A DNA stretch of 32,000 nucleotides from Ammonifex degensii KC4 (GTDB taxonomy: Bacteria > Bacillota > Desulfotomaculia > Desulfotomaculales > Ammonificaceae): assembly GCF_000024605.1 (NCBI RefSeq), contig NC_013385.1, positions 1,408,175 to 1,440,174 of the forward strand. The letters are read 5' to 3'. The notes below the pieces were generated by a model. The model worked only from the letters and a program-made list of their open reading frames with translations. It was not told the origin of the DNA and ran no database searches. Positions 18,465 to 26,244 of this stretch are shown here, in pieces. Position 1 is the stretch's first letter. Each line of letters begins with the position of its first letter. The translations under genes and the position numbers were made by a program.

Positions 18465-18794
18465 TTAATTTAGGTTGAGCTCCAGCATAAGGTCAACTAT
18501 CTTTCCCGCCACTCTTCCCGCGCCACACTTAGCCGAGGTACATAAAAGTCGGCTCAGCATCTGCAAAAGTTCCCGGTCTTCCGGCGAAAGTTCTTCTTTT
18601 TCTAGAAGTGAGCTTAAGGCAGCGGTCCCCATGTGTCCTACCGCACACTCGCCACAGCACTCCTGGGAAGCAAAATGCAAAAACTGCACGAGCACTTCTT
18701 TGAGCGGCGTCTCCTTGGTTACCGGAGGCCCGCTGCTTATCCCCATCACGCCCACCAGTCGTGCTATCTCGCCGGGATCAAGCCTTACTGTCAT
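18465..18794 (-). CDS. stand-alone NuoF-type 4Fe-4S-binding domain protein (variant Cys motif)
   Basis: ASQECCGECAVGHMG aligns with NuoF ESCGKCTPCREG, and the distal SAKCGAG aligns with S.CALG. 109 aa; SD AAAGGAGG upstream. Confidence 0.6.
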   Translation of the reverse strand: MTVRLDPGEIARLVGVMGISSGPPVTKETPLKEVLVQFLHFASQECCGECAVGHMGTAALSSLLEKEELSPEDRELLQMLSRLLCTSAKCGAGRVAGKIVDLMLELNLN

Positions 18795-18809
18795 CGTGCC
18801 AGTCCTCCT

Positions 18810-21242
18810 TTACCTGCCGGACTTCATCTCTTTAAGCCGCTTGTGCATATCGTTGACCGCGTCCACCCAGGCCCCGCCCGCCATCGATCCTATCTCCAGG
18901 AAGGCGAAACGGCGCGGGTCTATCCCCATGAGGGGTAGGAACTTCTCCCATATGGCCATGCGCCTGGCGACATGGACGTTGCCGTCGTGGTGATGGCAGT
19001 TGTATGGCGGACAGTAGCCCACGATGACCCCGTCGGCGCCATGAGCGAAGGCCTGAACCACGTACTGGGGGCTGACGCTGCCGCCACAGCGCACCCTGAT
19101 GATGCGCGTCCCTACCGGGTAGGAAAGCCGGGCCACACCTGCCATATCGGCCCCGGAATAGGCACACCAGTAGCAGAGGAAACCAACTATCCTGGGCTCG
19201 TCCGGCGGGACGTGTTTGAAGGCCACAGCGAGCTCCTTCTCCACCGACTCCTCGTTGAAGTTAGTTATCCTTATGGCACCCGTAGGACAGGCCGTGGTGC
19301 ATAGCCCGCAACCCTGGCAGAAAGCGGGGCTGGTGTAGTAGGTGCCGTCTTCCCGCCGCTGGATCACGCCGTGGGGACAGACTTTGGCGCAAAAACCGCA
19401 GCCACTGCACTTCTGAGGATCGACCTCGGCATAGTAGTCGAGCACCTCCACCTTCCCCTGCCGGTGATAAGGGAGGGCCCGTGCCACTGCCGCACTGGCT
19501 TCGGCGACACTGGGACTTACGGAGTTAAGGCCGGCTGCCGCTCCGACCACATAGAGCCGATGCACCGTTGATTCCGTGGGGCGGAAGACCCGGCAGCCCG
19601 GCGTATCGCCGTAAGGACCCTGGTTTATAGCGGGCAAACCCCACATGTCAAGCTTAAAGCCGAAAAGTTCAGCCAGGTTCGGTATATCCTTCCGGCTGCC
19701 CAGGGCAGTCGCTAGGACCAGGAGATCGGTCCGGAGCTTGAAGCCAGTGCCGGCAGCCCCCTCTAGGAACTCCACGTGAACCTCCAGAGTTTCCTCTTCT
19801 GCTGCCCGGGAAAGAGCAGTAACCCGGCCGCGTATTAGGTTTACCCCCGGCTGGTCCTTGATCCGACGGAAGAACTCCTCTGCCATTGGTCCGTTAGCCC
19901 GAATGTGAGAATAGATCAAGTTTATCTCCAGCTTGGGATTGAAGCGCTTGAGCAGGAAGATTTGCTTGAGGGTGTAAGCACAACAAATTTTGGAGCAGTA
20001 GGCTTTGGGCCCCTCCAGGGGCTGGAAGGGGAAACAGCCGTACTCACAGCGAGGATCGATCTCTCCCGTCTTCTCCCGCGACCCGCAGCAGAGCACGAAG
20101 GTAACGCTGCGGGGCTTGAAAGGCAACCGCTGGAGTTGAAAGCCGTATCTTTCCAGTTTAAGCGAGGTTATAATGCGCGAATCCCAGACCTCTTCCAAAA
20201 AGTCCAGCTTGACAGCAGGTATGGGGAGTTCCTCAAAGCCGGTGGCTAGCACCACACTGCCCACCCGCAGGGTTCTTTCCTGTGGTGCCGCCTGGAGATC
20301 TATGGCTTGAGCCGGACAGGCTCCGACGCAAGCCCCGCAGCGGGTGCAGGAATTGGGATCGATGGTGTAGCCCGGGGGTAGGGCCATGGGATGGGGCTTG
20401 TAGGCGGCCTTGCGGCGGCTAATTCCCATATCGAAATCGTTTTCCACTTCCACCGGACAGATTGCCGCGCAGCGCCCGCACTCCACGCACTTCTGGGAAT
20501 TGACAAACTGCGGCTCCTGCCAGAGGGTAACCAGGAAATTACCCCCGTCCTTTTTTACCTCCTTTACCCAGGTTCTGGTGAGCACCGTTATGTTGGGGTG
20601 GAGGTTGACGAGCTTCCCGATGTTGGGCATGATGCAGGAAGTAGCGCAGGAGGAAGGCCAGCTTTCATTCTGGTAAAGCATCTCCAACCGGGCCATCTGT
20701 CCACCGAGGTGCGACTCCTTCTCCACCAGCGTCACCTTTATGCCATTTCTGGCGTAGTCCAGCGCCGCCTGCATACCCGCCGGCCCTCCACCTATCACCA
20801 AAGCCTCATCGGCGATTTTGTAAGAGGCCGGATTACGCGGGCGGTTGTAAAGGACTCGCGCATGAGCCATGGCCACCAGGTCCACGGCCTTACCGGTGGC
20901 CAGCTCCTTTTGGCCGGGGTGGATCCAGGCACACTGCTCCCTTATGTTGGCTATTTCTAAAGCCGTTGTATCGCGCCCCACCTCGCGCAGCGCCCGCTTG
21001 AAGCGGAGTTCCGGAGCTGCCAGGCTGGAGCGTGGGGAACAGCCCGCCACCACCACGCGGTCAAGCTCCAGCTCCTGCACCATCTTCTGGAATAAGGCCA
21101 CACCCTCCTCCTGGCAAAGAAGAGAGTGGCGCTTGACGGTCACCACGCCGGGAAGCCGGCCACACTCCTCCACCAGGCGGTCAAAGTCCAGGTCCTGCGC
21201 CAAAGTGCCTTGGCAGTCGCAAACGAAGATCCCTACGCGCAA
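18810..21242 (-). CDS. hdrA: HdrA-like FAD/FeS oxidoreductase fused to a C-terminal MvhD (FlpD) domain
   Basis: FAD fold VIGGGPAGMQAALDYARNGIKVTLVEKESHLGGQ. HdrA Cys signature CCGSRE...YCSKICC. Ferredoxin motifs CVECGRCAAICP, CTRCGACVGACP, CSGCGFCAKVCP and CQGCGLCTTACP. MvhD-like FLCYWCAYSGADMAG...RVRCGGSVSPQYVVQAFAHGADGVIVGYC. TTG start 21242 with AGGGAGG upstream. Confidence 0.9.
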   Translation of the reverse strand: MRVGIFVCDCQGTLAQDLDFDRLVEECGRLPGVVTVKRHSLLCQEEGVALFQKMVQELELDRVVVAGCSPRSSLAAPELRFKRALREVGRDTTALEIANIREQCAWIHPGQKELATGKAVDLVAMAHARVLYNRPRNPASYKIADEALVIGGGPAGMQAALDYARNGIKVTLVEKESHLGGQMARLEMLYQNESWPSSCATSCIMPNIGKLVNLHPNITVLTRTWVKEVKKDGGNFLVTLWQEPQFVNSQKCVECGRCAAICPVEVENDFDMGISRRKAAYKPHPMALPPGYTIDPNSCTRCGACVGACPAQAIDLQAAPQERTLRVGSVVLATGFEELPIPAVKLDFLEEVWDSRIITSLKLERYGFQLQRLPFKPRSVTFVLCCGSREKTGEIDPRCEYGCFPFQPLEGPKAYCSKICCAYTLKQIFLLKRFNPKLEINLIYSHIRANGPMAEEFFRRIKDQPGVNLIRGRVTALSRAAEEETLEVHVEFLEGAAGTGFKLRTDLLVLATALGSRKDIPNLAELFGFKLDMWGLPAINQGPYGDTPGCRVFRPTESTVHRLYVVGAAAGLNSVSPSVAEASAAVARALPYHRQGKVEVLDYYAEVDPQKCSGCGFCAKVCPHGVIQRREDGTYYTSPAFCQGCGLCTTACPTGAIRITNFNEESVEKELAVAFKHVPPDEPRIVGFLCYWCAYSGADMAGVARLSYPVGTRIIRVRCGGSVSPQYVVQAFAHGADGVIVGYCPPYNCHHHDGNVHVARRMAIWEKFLPLMGIDPRRFAFLEIGSMAGGAWVDAVNDMHKRLKEMKSGR

Positions 21243-21289
21243 GAAAGCATTCCTCCCTTCGTGAGCTCTACCTCCGGGAGTATCTTGCT

Positions 21290-21976
21290 CTAAAGTCTAA
21301 CACTTCCTACCTGCCTCGACAAGCTTTTTTCACCAAAGGAAAGAGCCTGGCGGGGGCAGGCCGCCACGCAGGAGCCGCATTTCAGGCAGTCGCCGTCCCC
21401 CATTACTCCTTGCTGGCGGAAAAAGTGGGGCTGGAGCTTGAGGGGGCAGAAGCGGGAGCACACCCCACAACCCACGCAGGAGGGGGCCACCAGAAGCGGC
21501 TTCTTCCCGCGACCGAATAAGTTCGCCAAGGTGCCCATAGGACAGATCAGGCACCAGGCACGCGGGTGGAAAATGAGCCCCAGCAAAACGCCCACCAGGG
21601 TGGTCACGGTTAAAACCTTAACCAGCGCCAACCCCATGGCGGGAATATTCCCCCAGTTAAGGTACCACTGGACGCCTATGACGGCAAAAATCAGGATCAA
21701 AAAGAAGATCCTCACAGGCCAACTCCTGAAGAAAGCAGGGGTGGAGCGCTTGGCCGAGAGAGAGGACAAAAACAGATCGAAAAAGGCACCGCGGGGACAC
21801 ATCCAGTCGCACCAGGCCCGCCCCCGCGAAAAGGAAAGACCCACCGCCCCCAGCATGCATCCCAGCAGCAGGAAGCCCAGCCACGGATAAAACCACCCCC
21901 CTACCGCTACCAAGGGAAGCCCGATCCAGGTGTAGAGCTGGCGCTTCCTTCTCTCAAGAAGCTTTTCCCGCAGCAA
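21290..21976 (-). CDS. NapH/MauN-like integral-membrane polyferredoxin
   Basis: TM helices with CDWMCPRG and CLICPMG motifs, plus C-terminal CVGCGVCSRFCP and CLKCGSCVAACP. Start set at TTG 21976 (GGAGGAGG 7 nt upstream). The ORF-track start at 22042 lies inside the promoter. Confidence 0.75.
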   Translation of the reverse strand: MLREKLLERRKRQLYTWIGLPLVAVGGWFYPWLGFLLLGCMLGAVGLSFSRGRAWCDWMCPRGAFFDLFLSSLSAKRSTPAFFRSWPVRIFFLILIFAVIGVQWYLNWGNIPAMGLALVKVLTVTTLVGVLLGLIFHPRAWCLICPMGTLANLFGRGKKPLLVAPSCVGCGVCSRFCPLKLQPHFFRQQGVMGDGDCLKCGSCVAACPRQALSFGEKSLSRQVGSVRL

Positions 21977-22019
21977 ACTCTCGCCTCCTCCGATATACCC
22001 TATGGGGTATCTAGAAGCA

Positions 22020-22049
22020 ATTATAGAAGCCTCCCCTCCCACCTGTCAA
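22020..22049 (-). promoter_or_regulatory. near-consensus sigma-70-type promoter upstream of the NapH-like gene
   Basis: Minus strand reads TTGACA (22049..22044)-18 nt-TATAAT (22025..22020). Confidence 0.55.
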
Positions 22050-22084: not shown

Positions 22085-24631
22085 CTAGCTCTGGGTTGCG
22101 TTCTCCCCGGTTTCCTGTTCTTCTAGAGCTTTAACCTTTTCCTCGTACCACACCGGATGGTGAACCTTGGCCCACTCGGGCGAGACCTTGCCTGTCACCA
22201 GCAGGCGCCAGGTACCGGGGTTGGCCAGCGTGCCCAGGTAGGCGTGGCCCAGCACCGCCAGGATCAAGATCAGCGCTGAGATACCGTGCAGTGGCACCAT
22301 CCAGTGCCAGAGGGCCGGACTTACCTTCTGGCCGAAGATCATTACCACGCCGCTTATGCCGATAGCCAGGGTGAGGAAGGTGGTCAGCCAGTAGAAAAGC
22401 TTCTGTCCGGCGTTGAACTTGCCTGCCGGGGCATGCACCTCCCGGCGGCTGAAGTAGCCGCCCATGACCCGCAGCCACTCCCGGTCGTAGGAAGCGAAGC
22501 GAGCGTCCTTCCACCACCGTACGATGGCCCACAGGGAGCTCAACCCGAAAACCAAACCCATCGACCAGTGCCACACTCGCGCCGTCTCGTAGCTGCCGAA
22601 GAGAAACTCTATTGCTCCCACACGGTGGAAGGCGAAGAGCAGACCGGTAACCGCCAGGAAGATGAAGCTCAGCATCCTCACCAAGTGAACCACACGCTCA
22701 TCCAGGGAGAAGAGTTCTAGCCCAGCTGGGCACTGGGTGAGGCAAGTTCCCCGCGGCCCGATGACCACGTAGTGCAGGGAGAAAGCCAGGAGCAAGCCCG
22801 CCAGCAGCAGGGCGAAAAGCGGCGAGAGAAGGGTCAGGTACAGGTTGGTGAAGGAGAAGCTGAGCGGCGTCCAGCCCAGAAGCCAGGCCTGCTTGATCGT
22901 GACCGGCTTCCCGTCAGGGCCGTAGGGATCGACCACTATATCCTGGTAAAGCTTTCCCTGCTTGCTGTGGCAATCGGAGCAACCCTTGGCACCCAGAGCC
23001 ATCCCCGTCGGCGACACGTTGTGGTTGATGCAGAAAGTAGGCTCCTCCAGACTCGGATCCTCAGTCGCCTTCAGATTGCCGTTTCGGTCAAGCTCCCAGA
23101 CCTTCCCGCCCTTGTAATAGACAGGCGAGATCTGCTTGAAACGGCCGGGATTCTTTGCAAGCACCTGCCGGCAGGTGGTAAGCAGGAGTTTGATCTCCTC
23201 CGGCGTGTTTACCTCGGGCACGCCGTCGCCGTTATCGTCGCGGATCTTGCCCTTCAGCCGCTCCCAGACGGGCTTGATCTCCTTGAAGAAGAGCGGATAG
23301 ATTATCCCGTCCGCGTCGCGGTTACCCACCCACACTGCATGGATGACGTTTACCGGCTGGATCAAGCCCTTACGGGGATGCCTTAGCCACTGCGGCTGCC
23401 AAACGGCGGCGTCTCCTATCTTCTTACCCACCAGCGGCACGTCCACCATGGTTCCGGTGACCACATCGGCCGCCAGATCAGGGGCCCGGCCGATCTGGGG
23501 GATGTGGCAGGCCTCGCATGCCAGGCGCTTCAGGTGGCTGGGCGGGATTTTCTCATGCTTGGGCCGCGGTGCACCCATGATCCCCTTTTCGTGGCACTCC
23601 CGGCAGGAGTAGACGGTGTTCCGGAGCTCTGACGCAACAGTCTCCCCTAGATCGTCCCCCATGGCTATCTGGTGGTTGATGGTAGCGATCCCCTTAGCCT
23701 GATCGTTCACGAGAAAGTGGCAGGTAGTGCACTTGAGCCCGCGCTGCTGGTGAAGATCGGGATTCAGCCGATCGCCCCAGCTGAAACCACGCTTCTTCTG
23801 GTCGGAGATACCGTGGCAGAAAAGGCAGTTTCTAGGCTCCGGACTGGTTACGAAGGCAGCGTGGCTTATGGTGCCGTCGGGGTTAAACTTCTTGAGATCG
23901 TACTTCACCTTGGGCGTTTCCCCTTGGGCCACCGCTCCGGTCACCTGCCCCAAGCCCGCTCCCACGGTGGCCGCCCACTTATAGTTGCGCAACTTCAGTT
24001 GTTTGGTCCGCGCTTGCCAGTCATAACCGGGATAGTGGCAGAGCAGGCAGTCAGCCTCCACCACTCCGCTCTTGTCCCATGCGCTCTGGAAGTAATCCCC
24101 ATCCAAAGTGGTGCGCAGCTCCGGATTGGCCTTCAAACGCAGATCGTAGCGCTGGCCCTCCCGGTCGTACTCCATTCCTCCTCCGCCGGGGTGGCAGGAA
24201 CCGCAGGTAGGCTTCGGATCGGCAGGATTGCCAAATCCTATGAAGTCATAAGGAGTAAGGTCGATGGCTGCAGCGTTAGAGTTCTGCTTGGCCGCCAACT
24301 GGCGGTAGGAAGGTGGTCACCACTTCCCCATCATCCCGTTAGACAGGACCCAGGGCTTTTCCTTGCTGTAGCCGTCTTTGATGACATCCCAGCCCTGCTG
24401 AAAGTGGTAACCTTTGGTGATAGCCTCGTAATCGTGGCAGGCGCCGCAGGTCTGGCGGGGACTGTAGGGTTGATCGGCGTTCTCTCCCGTTACGGGGTTA
24501 ATGATGGCTCCCGTCTCGGTACGCAGGTAAAAGAACGGAGCCTTACCTGCTCCCCGCACCGCGGCCGGGAACGAGATCAACCCCACAAGCAGCAGCACAG
24601 TCAGGAAAGGTACCCCCTTCCGGTAGCGCAT
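22085..24631 (-). CDS. octaheme cytochrome c fused to an FdnI/PhsC-type cytochrome b; contains an in-frame TGA at 24319..24317 (candidate Sec/read-through, or a nonsense mutation)
   Basis: Signal peptide MRYRKGVPFLTVLLLVGLISFPAAVRGAG. Eight CxxCH motifs: CGACH | CGSCH, CLLCH, CLFCH, CTTCH, CRECH, CEACH, CSDCH. One linker TM and four cytochrome-b-like TMs (HLVRMLSFIFLAVTG, GKFNAGQKLFYW, HGISALILILAVLGHAYLG). The two track ORFs (24317..24631 and 22085..24298) share one frame. Confidence 0.75.
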
Positions 24632-24711: not shown

Positions 24712-24882
24712 AGCGCGCCCAAAGGAGAAAATAAGGAAGGAAATTTAGAACAAGAAAGCTGGCGCTGGAACTTGCCCCAATACTTCTCCCCAGGCTACCA
24801 ACCGCAAATTGCCTCCGCATTTCGGAGGAATGATAAGATTGAGAAAGGAACTCCTTCCACTCTGAAGTCGAGGAGGGAAAAA

Positions 24883-26244
24883 GTGAAGGTTAATTATGAT
24901 GTGGTGGTAATAGGTGGAGGAACAGCAGGAGTGACCGCCGCCACTACGGCGCGGCGCCACTACCCGGATAAAAAGGTTTTGCTTATCCGGCGGGAGGAAA
25001 AGACCCTTATCCCCTGCGGCATCCCCTACATGTTTGGAGTCTTAGACGATCCCTGCAAAAATGTAAATCCAGACTATATCCTGAGCATCCGGGGAATCGA
25101 AGTCAAAGTGGGAGAAGTAAAGGAGATCGTGCGGCAGGATAAAAAGCTGGTGATGACCTCAGGGGAGGAAATCGGTTATGACCGCCTAGTCCTGGCTACC
25201 GGTTCCCGCCCCGCCTTGCCCGCCATACCTGGCATCGACCAGGAAAACGTTTTTTGGATAAAGAAGGAGCTGCCCTATCTCCAGAAAGTGCTTGCCGCCC
25301 TGGCCGAAGCCCGCCGGGTAGTGATAATCGGCGGGGGATTCGTAGGAGTGGAACTGGCAGAGCAAATCAGAAAATACCGGCAACTGGAGGTCACCATAGT
25401 AGAAATTCTGCCTTATTGTCTCTACACTTCCTTCGACGAAGAGTTCTGCTTCGAAGCCGAGCGAGAACTCCAGGCCCTAGGGGTGGACATACTCACCGAA
25501 AAGAAAGTGGCGGAACTGGCCGGCAATGGCAAAGTAAAAGAGGTAAGGCTGGAAGACGGCACCGTGCTGCCCGCCGACGTGGTCATAATAACCACGGGGG
25601 TGCGGCCGGTGACCGAGCTGGCCGAGGCTGCCGGGCTTTCTCTGGGTCCCACCGGGGGAATCCTGGTGGACCGAACTATGGCCACCTCCGATCCTAACAT
25701 CTTCGCCTGCGGCGACTGCGCCGAAAAGTTCTCCTTCTTCGGCGGTAACCCGGTGCGTATACGCTTAGCCTCGGTGGCCGCCATGGAGGCGCGGGTAGCC
25801 GGCGCCAACCTCTTCGCCCGCCGCCGGGAGAACCCCGGTACGGTAGGGGTCTTCTCCACCAGGATCGGCGATAAGGCCTTCGGCGCCGCCGGGCTCATCG
25901 AGCGGATAGCCGAGGAGGAAGGATACGACGTGCTGCTGGGGGAGGCTTCTGCCCCCAACCGCCACCCTAGCGCCCTTCCCGGAACCTTCGACACCAAGGT
26001 GAAACTGGTGTTTGACCGCTACACCGGCATCCTGCTGGGAGGGCAAGCGGTAGGCAGCGAAAGCGTGGGCGAGCTCGTGAATCTCTTGAGCGCTTGTCTG
26101 CTGCACCGCATGACGGCCGTGGAAATGGCCGCCTTCCAGATGGGGACTCACCCCCTCCTCACCCCCTCCCCGCCGGCCTACCCGCTAGTAGTGGCGGCAG
26201 AGGAGGCAGCGGTGGCCAAGCTGGAGAAGAAACGGGAAGAGTAA
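24883..26244 (+). CDS. FAD-dependent pyridine nucleotide-disulfide oxidoreductase (NADH oxidase / CoA-disulfide reductase family)
   Basis: YDVVVIGGGTAGV, a single redox Cys in LIPCGIPYMF, a second dinucleotide fold VVIIGGGFVGVELAE, and ACGDCA. Start set at GTG 24883 (AGGAGGG 5 nt upstream). The ORF-track start at 24772 adds 37 unsupported residues. Confidence 0.85.
   Translation: MKVNYDVVVIGGGTAGVTAATTARRHYPDKKVLLIRREEKTLIPCGIPYMFGVLDDPCKNVNPDYILSIRGIEVKVGEVKEIVRQDKKLVMTSGEEIGYDRLVLATGSRPALPAIPGIDQENVFWIKKELPYLQKVLAALAEARRVVIIGGGFVGVELAEQIRKYRQLEVTIVEILPYCLYTSFDEEFCFEAERELQALGVDILTEKKVAELAGNGKVKEVRLEDGTVLPADVVIITTGVRPVTELAEAAGLSLGPTGGILVDRTMATSDPNIFACGDCAEKFSFFGGNPVRIRLASVAAMEARVAGANLFARRRENPGTVGVFSTRIGDKAFGAAGLIERIAEEEGYDVLLGEASAPNRHPSALPGTFDTKVKLVFDRYTGILLGGQAVGSESVGELVNLLSACLLHRMTAVEMAAFQMGTHPLLTPSPPAYPLVVAAEEAAVAKLEKKREE

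Follow-up and report, generated by a model that had tools for sequence, protein, structure and literature searches.

The 32,000-nucleotide stretch of the Ammonifex degensii KC4 genome analysed here (the window, in whose numbering all positions are given) holds on its minus strand, from 24631 down to 22085, a single open reading frame (ORF) of 848 amino acids that encodes an exported octaheme cytochrome c joined to an FdnI-type cytochrome b. The gene (22085–24631) comprises 848 codons and a stop codon, with a single in-frame TGA, and two related genomes preserve this frame, likewise with one TGA. The proteins of these relatives are 92% and 81% identical to the 848-residue protein, the 81% relative being Desulfothermobacter acidiphilus. 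The gene is single-copy in its genome, and an AlphaFold model of the full-length protein, calculated with the family alignment, reached a mean predicted local distance difference test (pLDDT) score of 91.6 and a predicted template modelling (pTM) score of 0.85.

A first-pass annotation had drawn attention to positions 22085–22840, which code for residues 598–848 and the stop codon, and had claimed that a multiheme domain and a cytochrome b of the FdnI/PhsC type reside in the same polypeptide. The 848-residue ORF and the domain profiles described below bear this out, and the observation of a fusion is correct and well above chance. The interpretation given at the time was right on the anatomy and wrong on the rarity of the arrangement. 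Added here are the gene boundaries with their read-through TGA, the recognition of the fifth helix as an FdnH anchor, the occurrence of both fused and split forms, and the resemblance of the heme domain to octaheme tetrathionate reductase (OTR).

The reading frame and its in-frame TGA codon

A mechanical ORF list begins the gene at TTG 24298, which yields a product of 737 amino acids. The frame extends further upstream, past a TGA at 24317–24319, to the start codon ATG at 24631, which is preceded by a Shine–Dalgarno-like sequence (GGGAGGAG). The 104 codons upstream of the TGA encode a signal peptide (MRYRK, a hydrophobic core and AAVRG) and the first CxxCH motif. The signal peptide covers residues 1–27 (24551–24631, minus strand), with a hydropathy peak of 2.34 at residues 5–30 and a helix at residues 9–27 in the model. 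The product starting from TTG 24298 lacks the signal peptide, and the heme domain can be exported only if the TGA is read through.

This TGA is codon 105, in the context GKW-U-PPS, and is very probably read as selenocysteine (Sec), judging from the comparison of related loci. The same alignment column holds TGA in eight loci of other phyla, TGT or TGC (Cys) in four, and Tyr in most members of the Acidobacteriota type. Altogether, a TGA at the identical column was found in 11 genomes or loci from several phyla, including the same genus and another genus of the family, and conservation is strong on both flanks of the codon. The genome encodes the machinery for Sec insertion, namely SelA (641.9 bits), SelB (386.9 bits) and a tRNA-Sec with the anticodon TCA.

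A hairpin resembling a selenocysteine insertion sequence (SECIS), CCGCC-AGUU-GGCGG, lies at 24292–24305 on the minus strand, its loop beginning 16 nt past the UGA. Hairpins with an AGUU loop occur 16–22 nt downstream of the TGA in nine of nine TGA members, whereas the Cys members are without it. Pairing was possible in 79% of the alignment cells compared with 72% in shuffled alignments (0 of 500 shuffles as high), and three pairs show compensatory changes, which provides modest covariation support for the structure. Folding of 76 nt around the TGA as a single sequence did not single out the hairpin, and the minimum free energy was not exceptional (z −0.97); the hairpin was recognised by comparing the nine TGA-type loci.

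Gene callers produce shortened versions of the protein (696 aa for P0003, 743 aa for P0004), and the 743-residue version of the 81%-identical relative is named "formate dehydrogenase subunit gamma" by NCBI. Among 82 database homologues, 21 lack the N-terminal part and begin just past the TGA position, like the 737-residue ORF. These short homologues are probably Sec-type members truncated by gene callers, which suggests that the same mis-called start is widespread.

The formate dehydrogenase-N membrane module

Residues 639–834 (22130–22717, minus strand) constitute an FdnI-type diheme cytochrome b with four transmembrane helices. The domain scores 136.5 bits against TIGR01583 (formate dehydrogenase gamma; curated cut-off 115.85) and 74.4 bits against PF01292 (cut-off 30.1, E 1.2e-20), and the family profile aligns with residues 3–214 of Escherichia coli FdnI (1kqf_C) at E 1.5e-37. 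The model superimposes on 1kqf_C as a four-helix bundle over 208 of 216 residues, with a Z-score of 22.0 and a root-mean-square deviation (rmsd) of 2.1 Å. In the alignment, H649 (22685–22687) and H796 (22244–22246) coincide with FdnI H18 and H169 at the cytoplasmic-side heme b, the latter at the quinone site, while H688 (22568–22570) and H782 (22286–22288) coincide with H57 and H155 at the outer-side heme b. These four residues of FdnI are what we take, from the structure of formate dehydrogenase-N (Fdn-N), to be the ligands of the two b-hemes. The sequence GKFNAGQK (22400–22423) falls in a positively charged cytoplasmic loop and corresponds to FdnI G107–K114, the quinone-site motif. The four histidines as well as NAGQK (residues 740–744) are invariant in 82 of 82 homologues. 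Four membrane helices with the conserved histidines and the GKFNAGQK pattern of the FdnI/PhsC family had been proposed in the first-pass annotation; the TIGR01583 score and the alignment with FdnI support this assignment, and all four heme-ligating histidines are in place. Genes for FdnG, the molybdopterin subunit, or FdnH do not adjoin the 848-residue gene. With no formate dehydrogenase genes adjacent and a fused octaheme domain as the partner, the database name "formate dehydrogenase subunit gamma" is misleading.

The cytochrome b is preceded by an anchor helix (22763–22867, minus strand) that spans 35 residues, 589–623, in the AlphaFold model and ends in LHYVVIGPR. It had previously been described as one linker helix following the last CxxCH motif (CSDCH, residues 551–555). 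The helix is indeed present, but it is not a mere linker, being homologous to the C-terminal transmembrane helix of FdnH, the iron–sulfur (FeS) subunit of E. coli Fdn-N. When a profile of the 46-residue segment, built from 20 family members, was compared with 177,635 distinct PDB sequences, the sole match was 1kqf_B (FdnH) at residues 251–283, i.e. its C-terminal membrane anchor (E 1.7e-4). H620 aligns with FdnH His275, and both helices share the motif HY..GP. A hidden Markov model of the segment, run against 3,471 ORF fragments of non-fused loci, recovered about 22 FdnH-like C-termini (E 2.5e-5 to 0.06). Each of these proteins has two ferredoxin-type Cys motifs and ends in HY..GP(K/R), and two of them carry Fer4_11 and PF09163 ("Formate dehydrogenase N, transmembrane") according to Pfam. 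At one locus (L060), a single tblastn alignment spans an FdnH-like anchor, a stop codon and then the next gene, which is FdnI. PF09163 itself scored 13.8 bits (E 0.052) against the anchor segment and 20.2 bits against a five-helix cytochrome b from Desulforamulus, both below the cut-off of 22.1, and either stood alone or ranked first among the families in each of the three tests.

Given an anchor homologous to FdnH and a b domain of the FdnI type, the complete membrane module of Fdn-N has been kept, with the octaheme domain in the place of the FeS domain. Compared to Fdn-N (FdnH anchor plus FdnI, 1KQF), the five helices follow in the same order and orientation, and the shared features include the four heme-b histidines, the NAGQK sequence and, where the anchor reaches the cytoplasmic side, the HY..GP motif. 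Conversely, the two parts form one chain here, and the FeS domain of FdnH and the FdnG subunit are replaced by an octaheme cytochrome c. The anchor homology thereby shows the origin of the fusion, in which the Fdn-N membrane module was reused and a multiheme domain took the place of the FeS subunit, and it makes 1KQF a structural template for the electron hand-over between c- and b-hemes.

The residue H620 (22772–22774) is invariant in 82 of 82 fused proteins and is also found in the five-helix split cytochromes b and in FdnH anchors. It is not among the four heme ligands; a quinone site, a proton path or contact with a heme propionate are candidate roles. A helix of this kind is also seen in FdhC-like cytochromes b of 313–519 amino acids and about six helices (L071, L076, L079 and L086–L088, from Mesorhizobium, Azospirillum, Helicobacter and others), in which an N-terminal extension helix aligns with the anchor (LGHYMVIGQRK in Helicobacter). 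In a tree of the b domain, these proteins lie on the same side of the main split as the fused family. The short loop behind the anchor (22739–22760, residues 624–631) had been highlighted for its cysteines, TCLTQCPAG. They are present in this protein, but C630 and C634 occur in only two of 82 sequences, and the pair was rejected as a redox motif of the family. It is shared only with the 81%-identical relative and is lineage-specific.

The topology was derived from hydropathy, the positive-inside rule and homology to 1KQF. Hydropathy indicates the signal peptide and five membrane helices. The loop 710–744, which holds NAGQK, contains seven Lys or Arg residues, compared with one each in the loops 671–686 and 769–780. 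A 570-residue stretch with eight c-heme motifs must mature outside the cytoplasm, which places the heme domain on the extracytoplasmic face, and the genome carries two genes for cytochrome c assembly. FdnI has both its N- and C-terminus inside, and the predicted topology, with the heme domain out and both ends of the cytochrome b in, agrees with it. Five helices that join an N-out heme domain to an N-in cytochrome b, as originally suggested, are thus in line with hydropathy and the charged loop, and the location of the heme domain follows from the signal peptide, the c-heme motifs and the assembly genes.

The octaheme domain and its proposed reaction

Residues 28–588 (22868–24550, minus strand) form an octaheme cytochrome c domain with an OTR-like fold. 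The eight CxxCH motifs start at C62, C143, C195, C269, C301, C343, C372 and C551, and all of them are invariant in the family alignments. The nearest solved fold is 1sp3, OTR from Shewanella (Foldseek E 9.9e-8, probability 1.0), and superposition of model residues 28–598 on residues 1–437 of the 1sp3 chain (VIA) gave a Z-score of 12.9 and an rmsd of 4.4 Å over 327 residues. The family model of octaheme tetrathionate reductase, TIGR04315, scored 49.6 bits against a cut-off of 375, with a match limited to residues 191–383. The likeness to OTR of Shewanella oneidensis (1SP3) thus consists in eight c-hemes and a shared fold across the whole heme domain. In contrast, OTR lacks a membrane part, being soluble in the periplasm and about 440 residues in length; the domain described here is about 130 residues longer and its sequence similarity to OTR is weak.

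Several features of the domain bear on catalysis. Six His residues outside the motifs are invariant (H76, H294, H320, H359, H366 and H537), compared with eight hemes. K115, located between heme motifs 1 and 2, is invariant as well and K280 is conserved; from its position in the sequence, K115 is a candidate counterpart of the lysine ligand of catalytic heme 2 in OTR. The domain amounts to about 7.8 kDa per heme and thereby lies within the "peptide-replete" range of this ratio, which has been associated with catalytic cytochromes (PMC7096707). The size per heme, the OTR-like fold, the six distal histidines and the conserved lysine lean toward a catalytic octaheme domain, which they favour rather than prove.

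For a Sec residue in a multiheme cytochrome, the only characterised case is MccSep / ExtKL (GSU2937-2936), a pentaheme polysulfide reductase described in 2026 (PMC13510729). Both are exported multiheme cytochromes c in which one in-frame UGA encodes Sec (very probably so in the present protein) followed by Pro; MccSep has likewise been mis-annotated as two genes and exists in Sec and Cys variants (PMC13510729). MccSep differs in its five hemes, its soluble tetrameric state, an Ig-like domain and a heme-ligating Cys (PMC13510729), and with 10.8 bits against NF040886 (cut-off 250) the 848-residue protein is not a member of the MccSep / ExtKL family. A second point of comparison is Mco of ANME archaea, where a VhtC-type cytochrome b gene lies beside the gene for a cytochrome c with 7–11 hemes (PMC9012536). 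There, too, a multiheme cytochrome c has acquired a cytochrome b of the hydrogenase/Fdh type as its partner, which serves as a quinol (methanophenazine):cytochrome c oxidoreductase (PMC9012536). Mco is archaeal and encoded by separate genes, and is functionally comparable to the split forms L051–L053, L057 and L059 discussed below.

We propose that the gene encodes one 848-residue selenoprotein in which an octaheme domain is mounted on an Fdn-N membrane module, acting as a menaquinol:periplasmic-substrate oxidoreductase that probably reduces a low-potential sulfur or selenium compound. We assign this reading a probability of about 0.6. The signal peptide would direct the OTR-like octaheme domain to the outer side of the membrane, and the polypeptide would then traverse the membrane once via the FdnH-derived anchor helix and continue into the four-helix diheme cytochrome b of the FdnI type. 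H796 and the NAGQK loop would form the site of menaquinol oxidation on the cytoplasmic side, from which electrons would travel through the heme b of that side and then the outer-side heme b, on to the c-heme chain and finally to the catalytic site of the octaheme domain. This site may include residue 105, Sec here and Cys or Tyr in relatives. A periplasmic acceptor would be reduced there, with low-potential compounds of sulfur or selenium, for example polysulfide or tetrathionate, as the likeliest candidates. With a quinol site on the inner side and electrons moving outwards, the membrane potential would help to reduce low-potential acceptors. Reduction assisted by the membrane potential has reportedly been argued for PhsC, and by analogy such a direction matches the low-potential role of the bc-cytochrome CbcL introduced below. 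A sulfur or selenium substrate is suggested by MccSep, a polysulfide reductase in which Sec also precedes Pro (PMC13510729).

Some of the findings weigh against this proposal. A phmmer search of the heme domain against PDB sequences gave no match even at E 10, and family profiles run against the same set retrieved short NrfA heme-packing matches only and did not find OTR; the link to OTR consequently rests on fold comparison. The family alignments contain no invariant Cys beyond the CxxCH motifs, so that the His/Cys heme of MccSep lacks a counterpart. Many relatives have Tyr, Ser, Gly, Gln or another residue at position 105, and dependence of the whole family on Sec or Cys chemistry is therefore excluded. 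Finally, the direction of electron flow is not readable from sequence.

The best-surviving alternative, which we nevertheless consider unlikely, is a non-catalytic quinol dehydrogenase after the model of CbcL, in which the octaheme domain only relays electrons, either to other cytochromes outside the cytoplasm or to extracellular acceptors, metals for instance. CbcL (GSU0274) is an inner-membrane bc-cytochrome of Geobacter sulfurreducens that serves as a menaquinol oxidase for low-potential acceptors (PMC6295460, PMC9129911, PMC7096707). By its published description, it combines in one polypeptide an N-terminal multiheme cytochrome c and a C-terminal HydC/FdnI-like diheme cytochrome b (PMC6295460), which is the overall design found here. 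Moreover, the six invariant distal histidines would be available for bis-His hemes, and the family is often encountered in phyla with many metal reducers. However, in CbcL a compact domain of low secondary structure accommodates nine bis-His hemes and there are six transmembrane helices, whereas the 848-residue protein has eight hemes in a large domain of about 560 residues that is OTR-like throughout, five helices and a Sec codon. Six invariant distal histidines fall short of eight hemes, the invariant Lys115 and a position that switches between Sec, Cys and Tyr resemble an active site, and no partner cytochrome gene is conserved nearby.

We regard as more doubtful still the reverse, Fdn-N-like direction, in which a periplasmic reductant (e.g. 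a reduced sulfur or nitrogen compound) would be oxidized at the octaheme domain and menaquinone reduced on the cytoplasmic side, as one half of a proton-motive redox loop. The membrane module is that of formate dehydrogenase-N, which runs in this direction, and among octaheme relatives, those of the HAO type catalyse oxidations. Against this stand three observations, none of them decisive: the closest fold among solved structures belongs to a known reductase, OTR; CbcL, whose b domain is of the same kind, oxidizes quinol; and the characterised Sec multiheme enzyme is a reductase (PMC13510729). The least credible alternative, to which we give hardly any weight, is that the TGA is a true stop that leaves either a 104-residue exported monoheme protein and a 737-residue product with no signal peptide, or a decaying gene, with the heme domain of the fusion never exported: gene callers do annotate the locus in this way and the 76-nt fold is unexceptional, but the TGA column is shared across phyla with Cys in other members, the hairpin is confined to TGA members, the Sec machinery is complete, both sides of the codon are strongly conserved, and maturation would fail for a cytoplasmic product that carries seven CxxCH motifs.

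Should the octaheme domain be catalytic, as in the menaquinol-dependent reductase we favour, the protein would represent a complete quinol-to-substrate respiratory enzyme in one polypeptide and a target for studying sulfur or selenium reduction assisted by the proton-motive force. A bolder extension, which we put forward as speculative and rather unlikely in its full extent, is that the whole family consists of one-polypeptide respiratory enzymes with an OTR-like catalytic domain grafted on the Fdn-N module, and that the substrate class is determined by which residue (Sec, Cys, Tyr or Ser) stands at position 105. The form with Sec would then be the sought membrane-bound, menaquinol-dependent sulfur/polysulfide (or selenium oxyanion) reductase of the Gram-positive thermophiles of this lineage, and chalcogen reduction by Sec plus heme would have arisen twice independently, here and in MccSep.

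Distribution, split forms and gene neighbourhood

According to the first-pass annotation, the multiheme protein and its quinol-oxidizing b subunit are separate polypeptides in known systems. This does not hold. A search of 5.8 billion proteins identified at least 243 relatives among the candidates scored, which combine c-heme and cytochrome b parts and come from many phyla. The best 120 of the 243 all contain c-heme families and nearly all contain PF01292 in addition; the name "formate dehydrogenase subunit gamma" is frequent. With one genome scanned per species, 568 stretches were confirmed, in Acidobacteriota, Zixibacteria, Ignavibacteria, Thermodesulfobacteriota, Hydrogenedentota and others, and the ESM Atlas, queried with the 737-residue ORF, returned many clusters that combine c-heme families and PF01292. 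The octaheme/cytochrome b fusion is therefore widespread, and it is not novel as a design: the publication of CbcL established the principle of a covalent c/b fusion, and CbcL-type bc-cytochromes are known, so that the fusion as such will not surprise specialists. In a full-text literature search no description of the octaheme–FdnI fusion family was found, which is not proof of absence. The significance lies rather in a large, widely distributed and uncharacterised family that is systematically mis-annotated, as "formate dehydrogenase subunit gamma" on the one hand and by truncation or splitting of Sec members at the TGA on the other.

Split forms exist alongside the fused ones. At L057 and L059, the anchor helix and cytochrome b have a gene of their own (232–236 amino acids), located behind that of a homologous seven-heme protein, while their relatives L039 and L054 have one fused gene of 1,140–1,148 amino acids. 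Desulforamulus and other Clostridia carry a six-heme cytochrome gene followed by a five-helix anchor-plus-b gene, and split forms were likewise found at L051–L053. In a maximum-likelihood tree of the b domain (midpoint root; rows with fewer than 150 aligned residues excluded; three identical pairs being the same ORF under two labels), classical FdnI with its separate FdnH anchor splits from the rest with a support of 98/97, and all fused forms group with the five-helix split forms (96/83). The b domain from the window falls with the split forms of Clostridia at 92/80, which is not strong.

Downstream of the fused gene lie genes for a NapH-like membrane polyferredoxin, an HdrA-MvhD fusion and a protein with the NuoF Fe-S domain, and upstream, in divergent orientation, a gene for a flavoprotein of the Nox/CoADR type (18465–22042 and 24772–26244, respectively). 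Both related genomes keep the NapH-like, HdrA-MvhD and Nox proteins beside the gene, at 86–94% identity. No conserved neighbour was found in 40 loci from other phyla. The neighbours, conserved only within the family to which the window belongs, were set aside as a functional clue: they say little on the function of the protein family, and their lack of conservation across phyla was counted in favour of a self-sufficient fused protein.

Two further arrangements were noted. Paralogues of the fused gene adjoin in tandem in three metagenome-assembled genomes (L023:2331-7828, L029:535-6512 and L038:2984-8523). In Chthonomonadales (L033:1178-5033, L034:3797-7593 and L035:4077-8309), the octaheme domain occurs alone, with no membrane part and with Gln at position 105. 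Its neighbours there are an ArsR-family regulator, an ArsP_1 permease, and Thioredoxin_3, DGC-domain and nitroreductase-family proteins, a cluster context of the metalloid/chalcogen-detoxification type.

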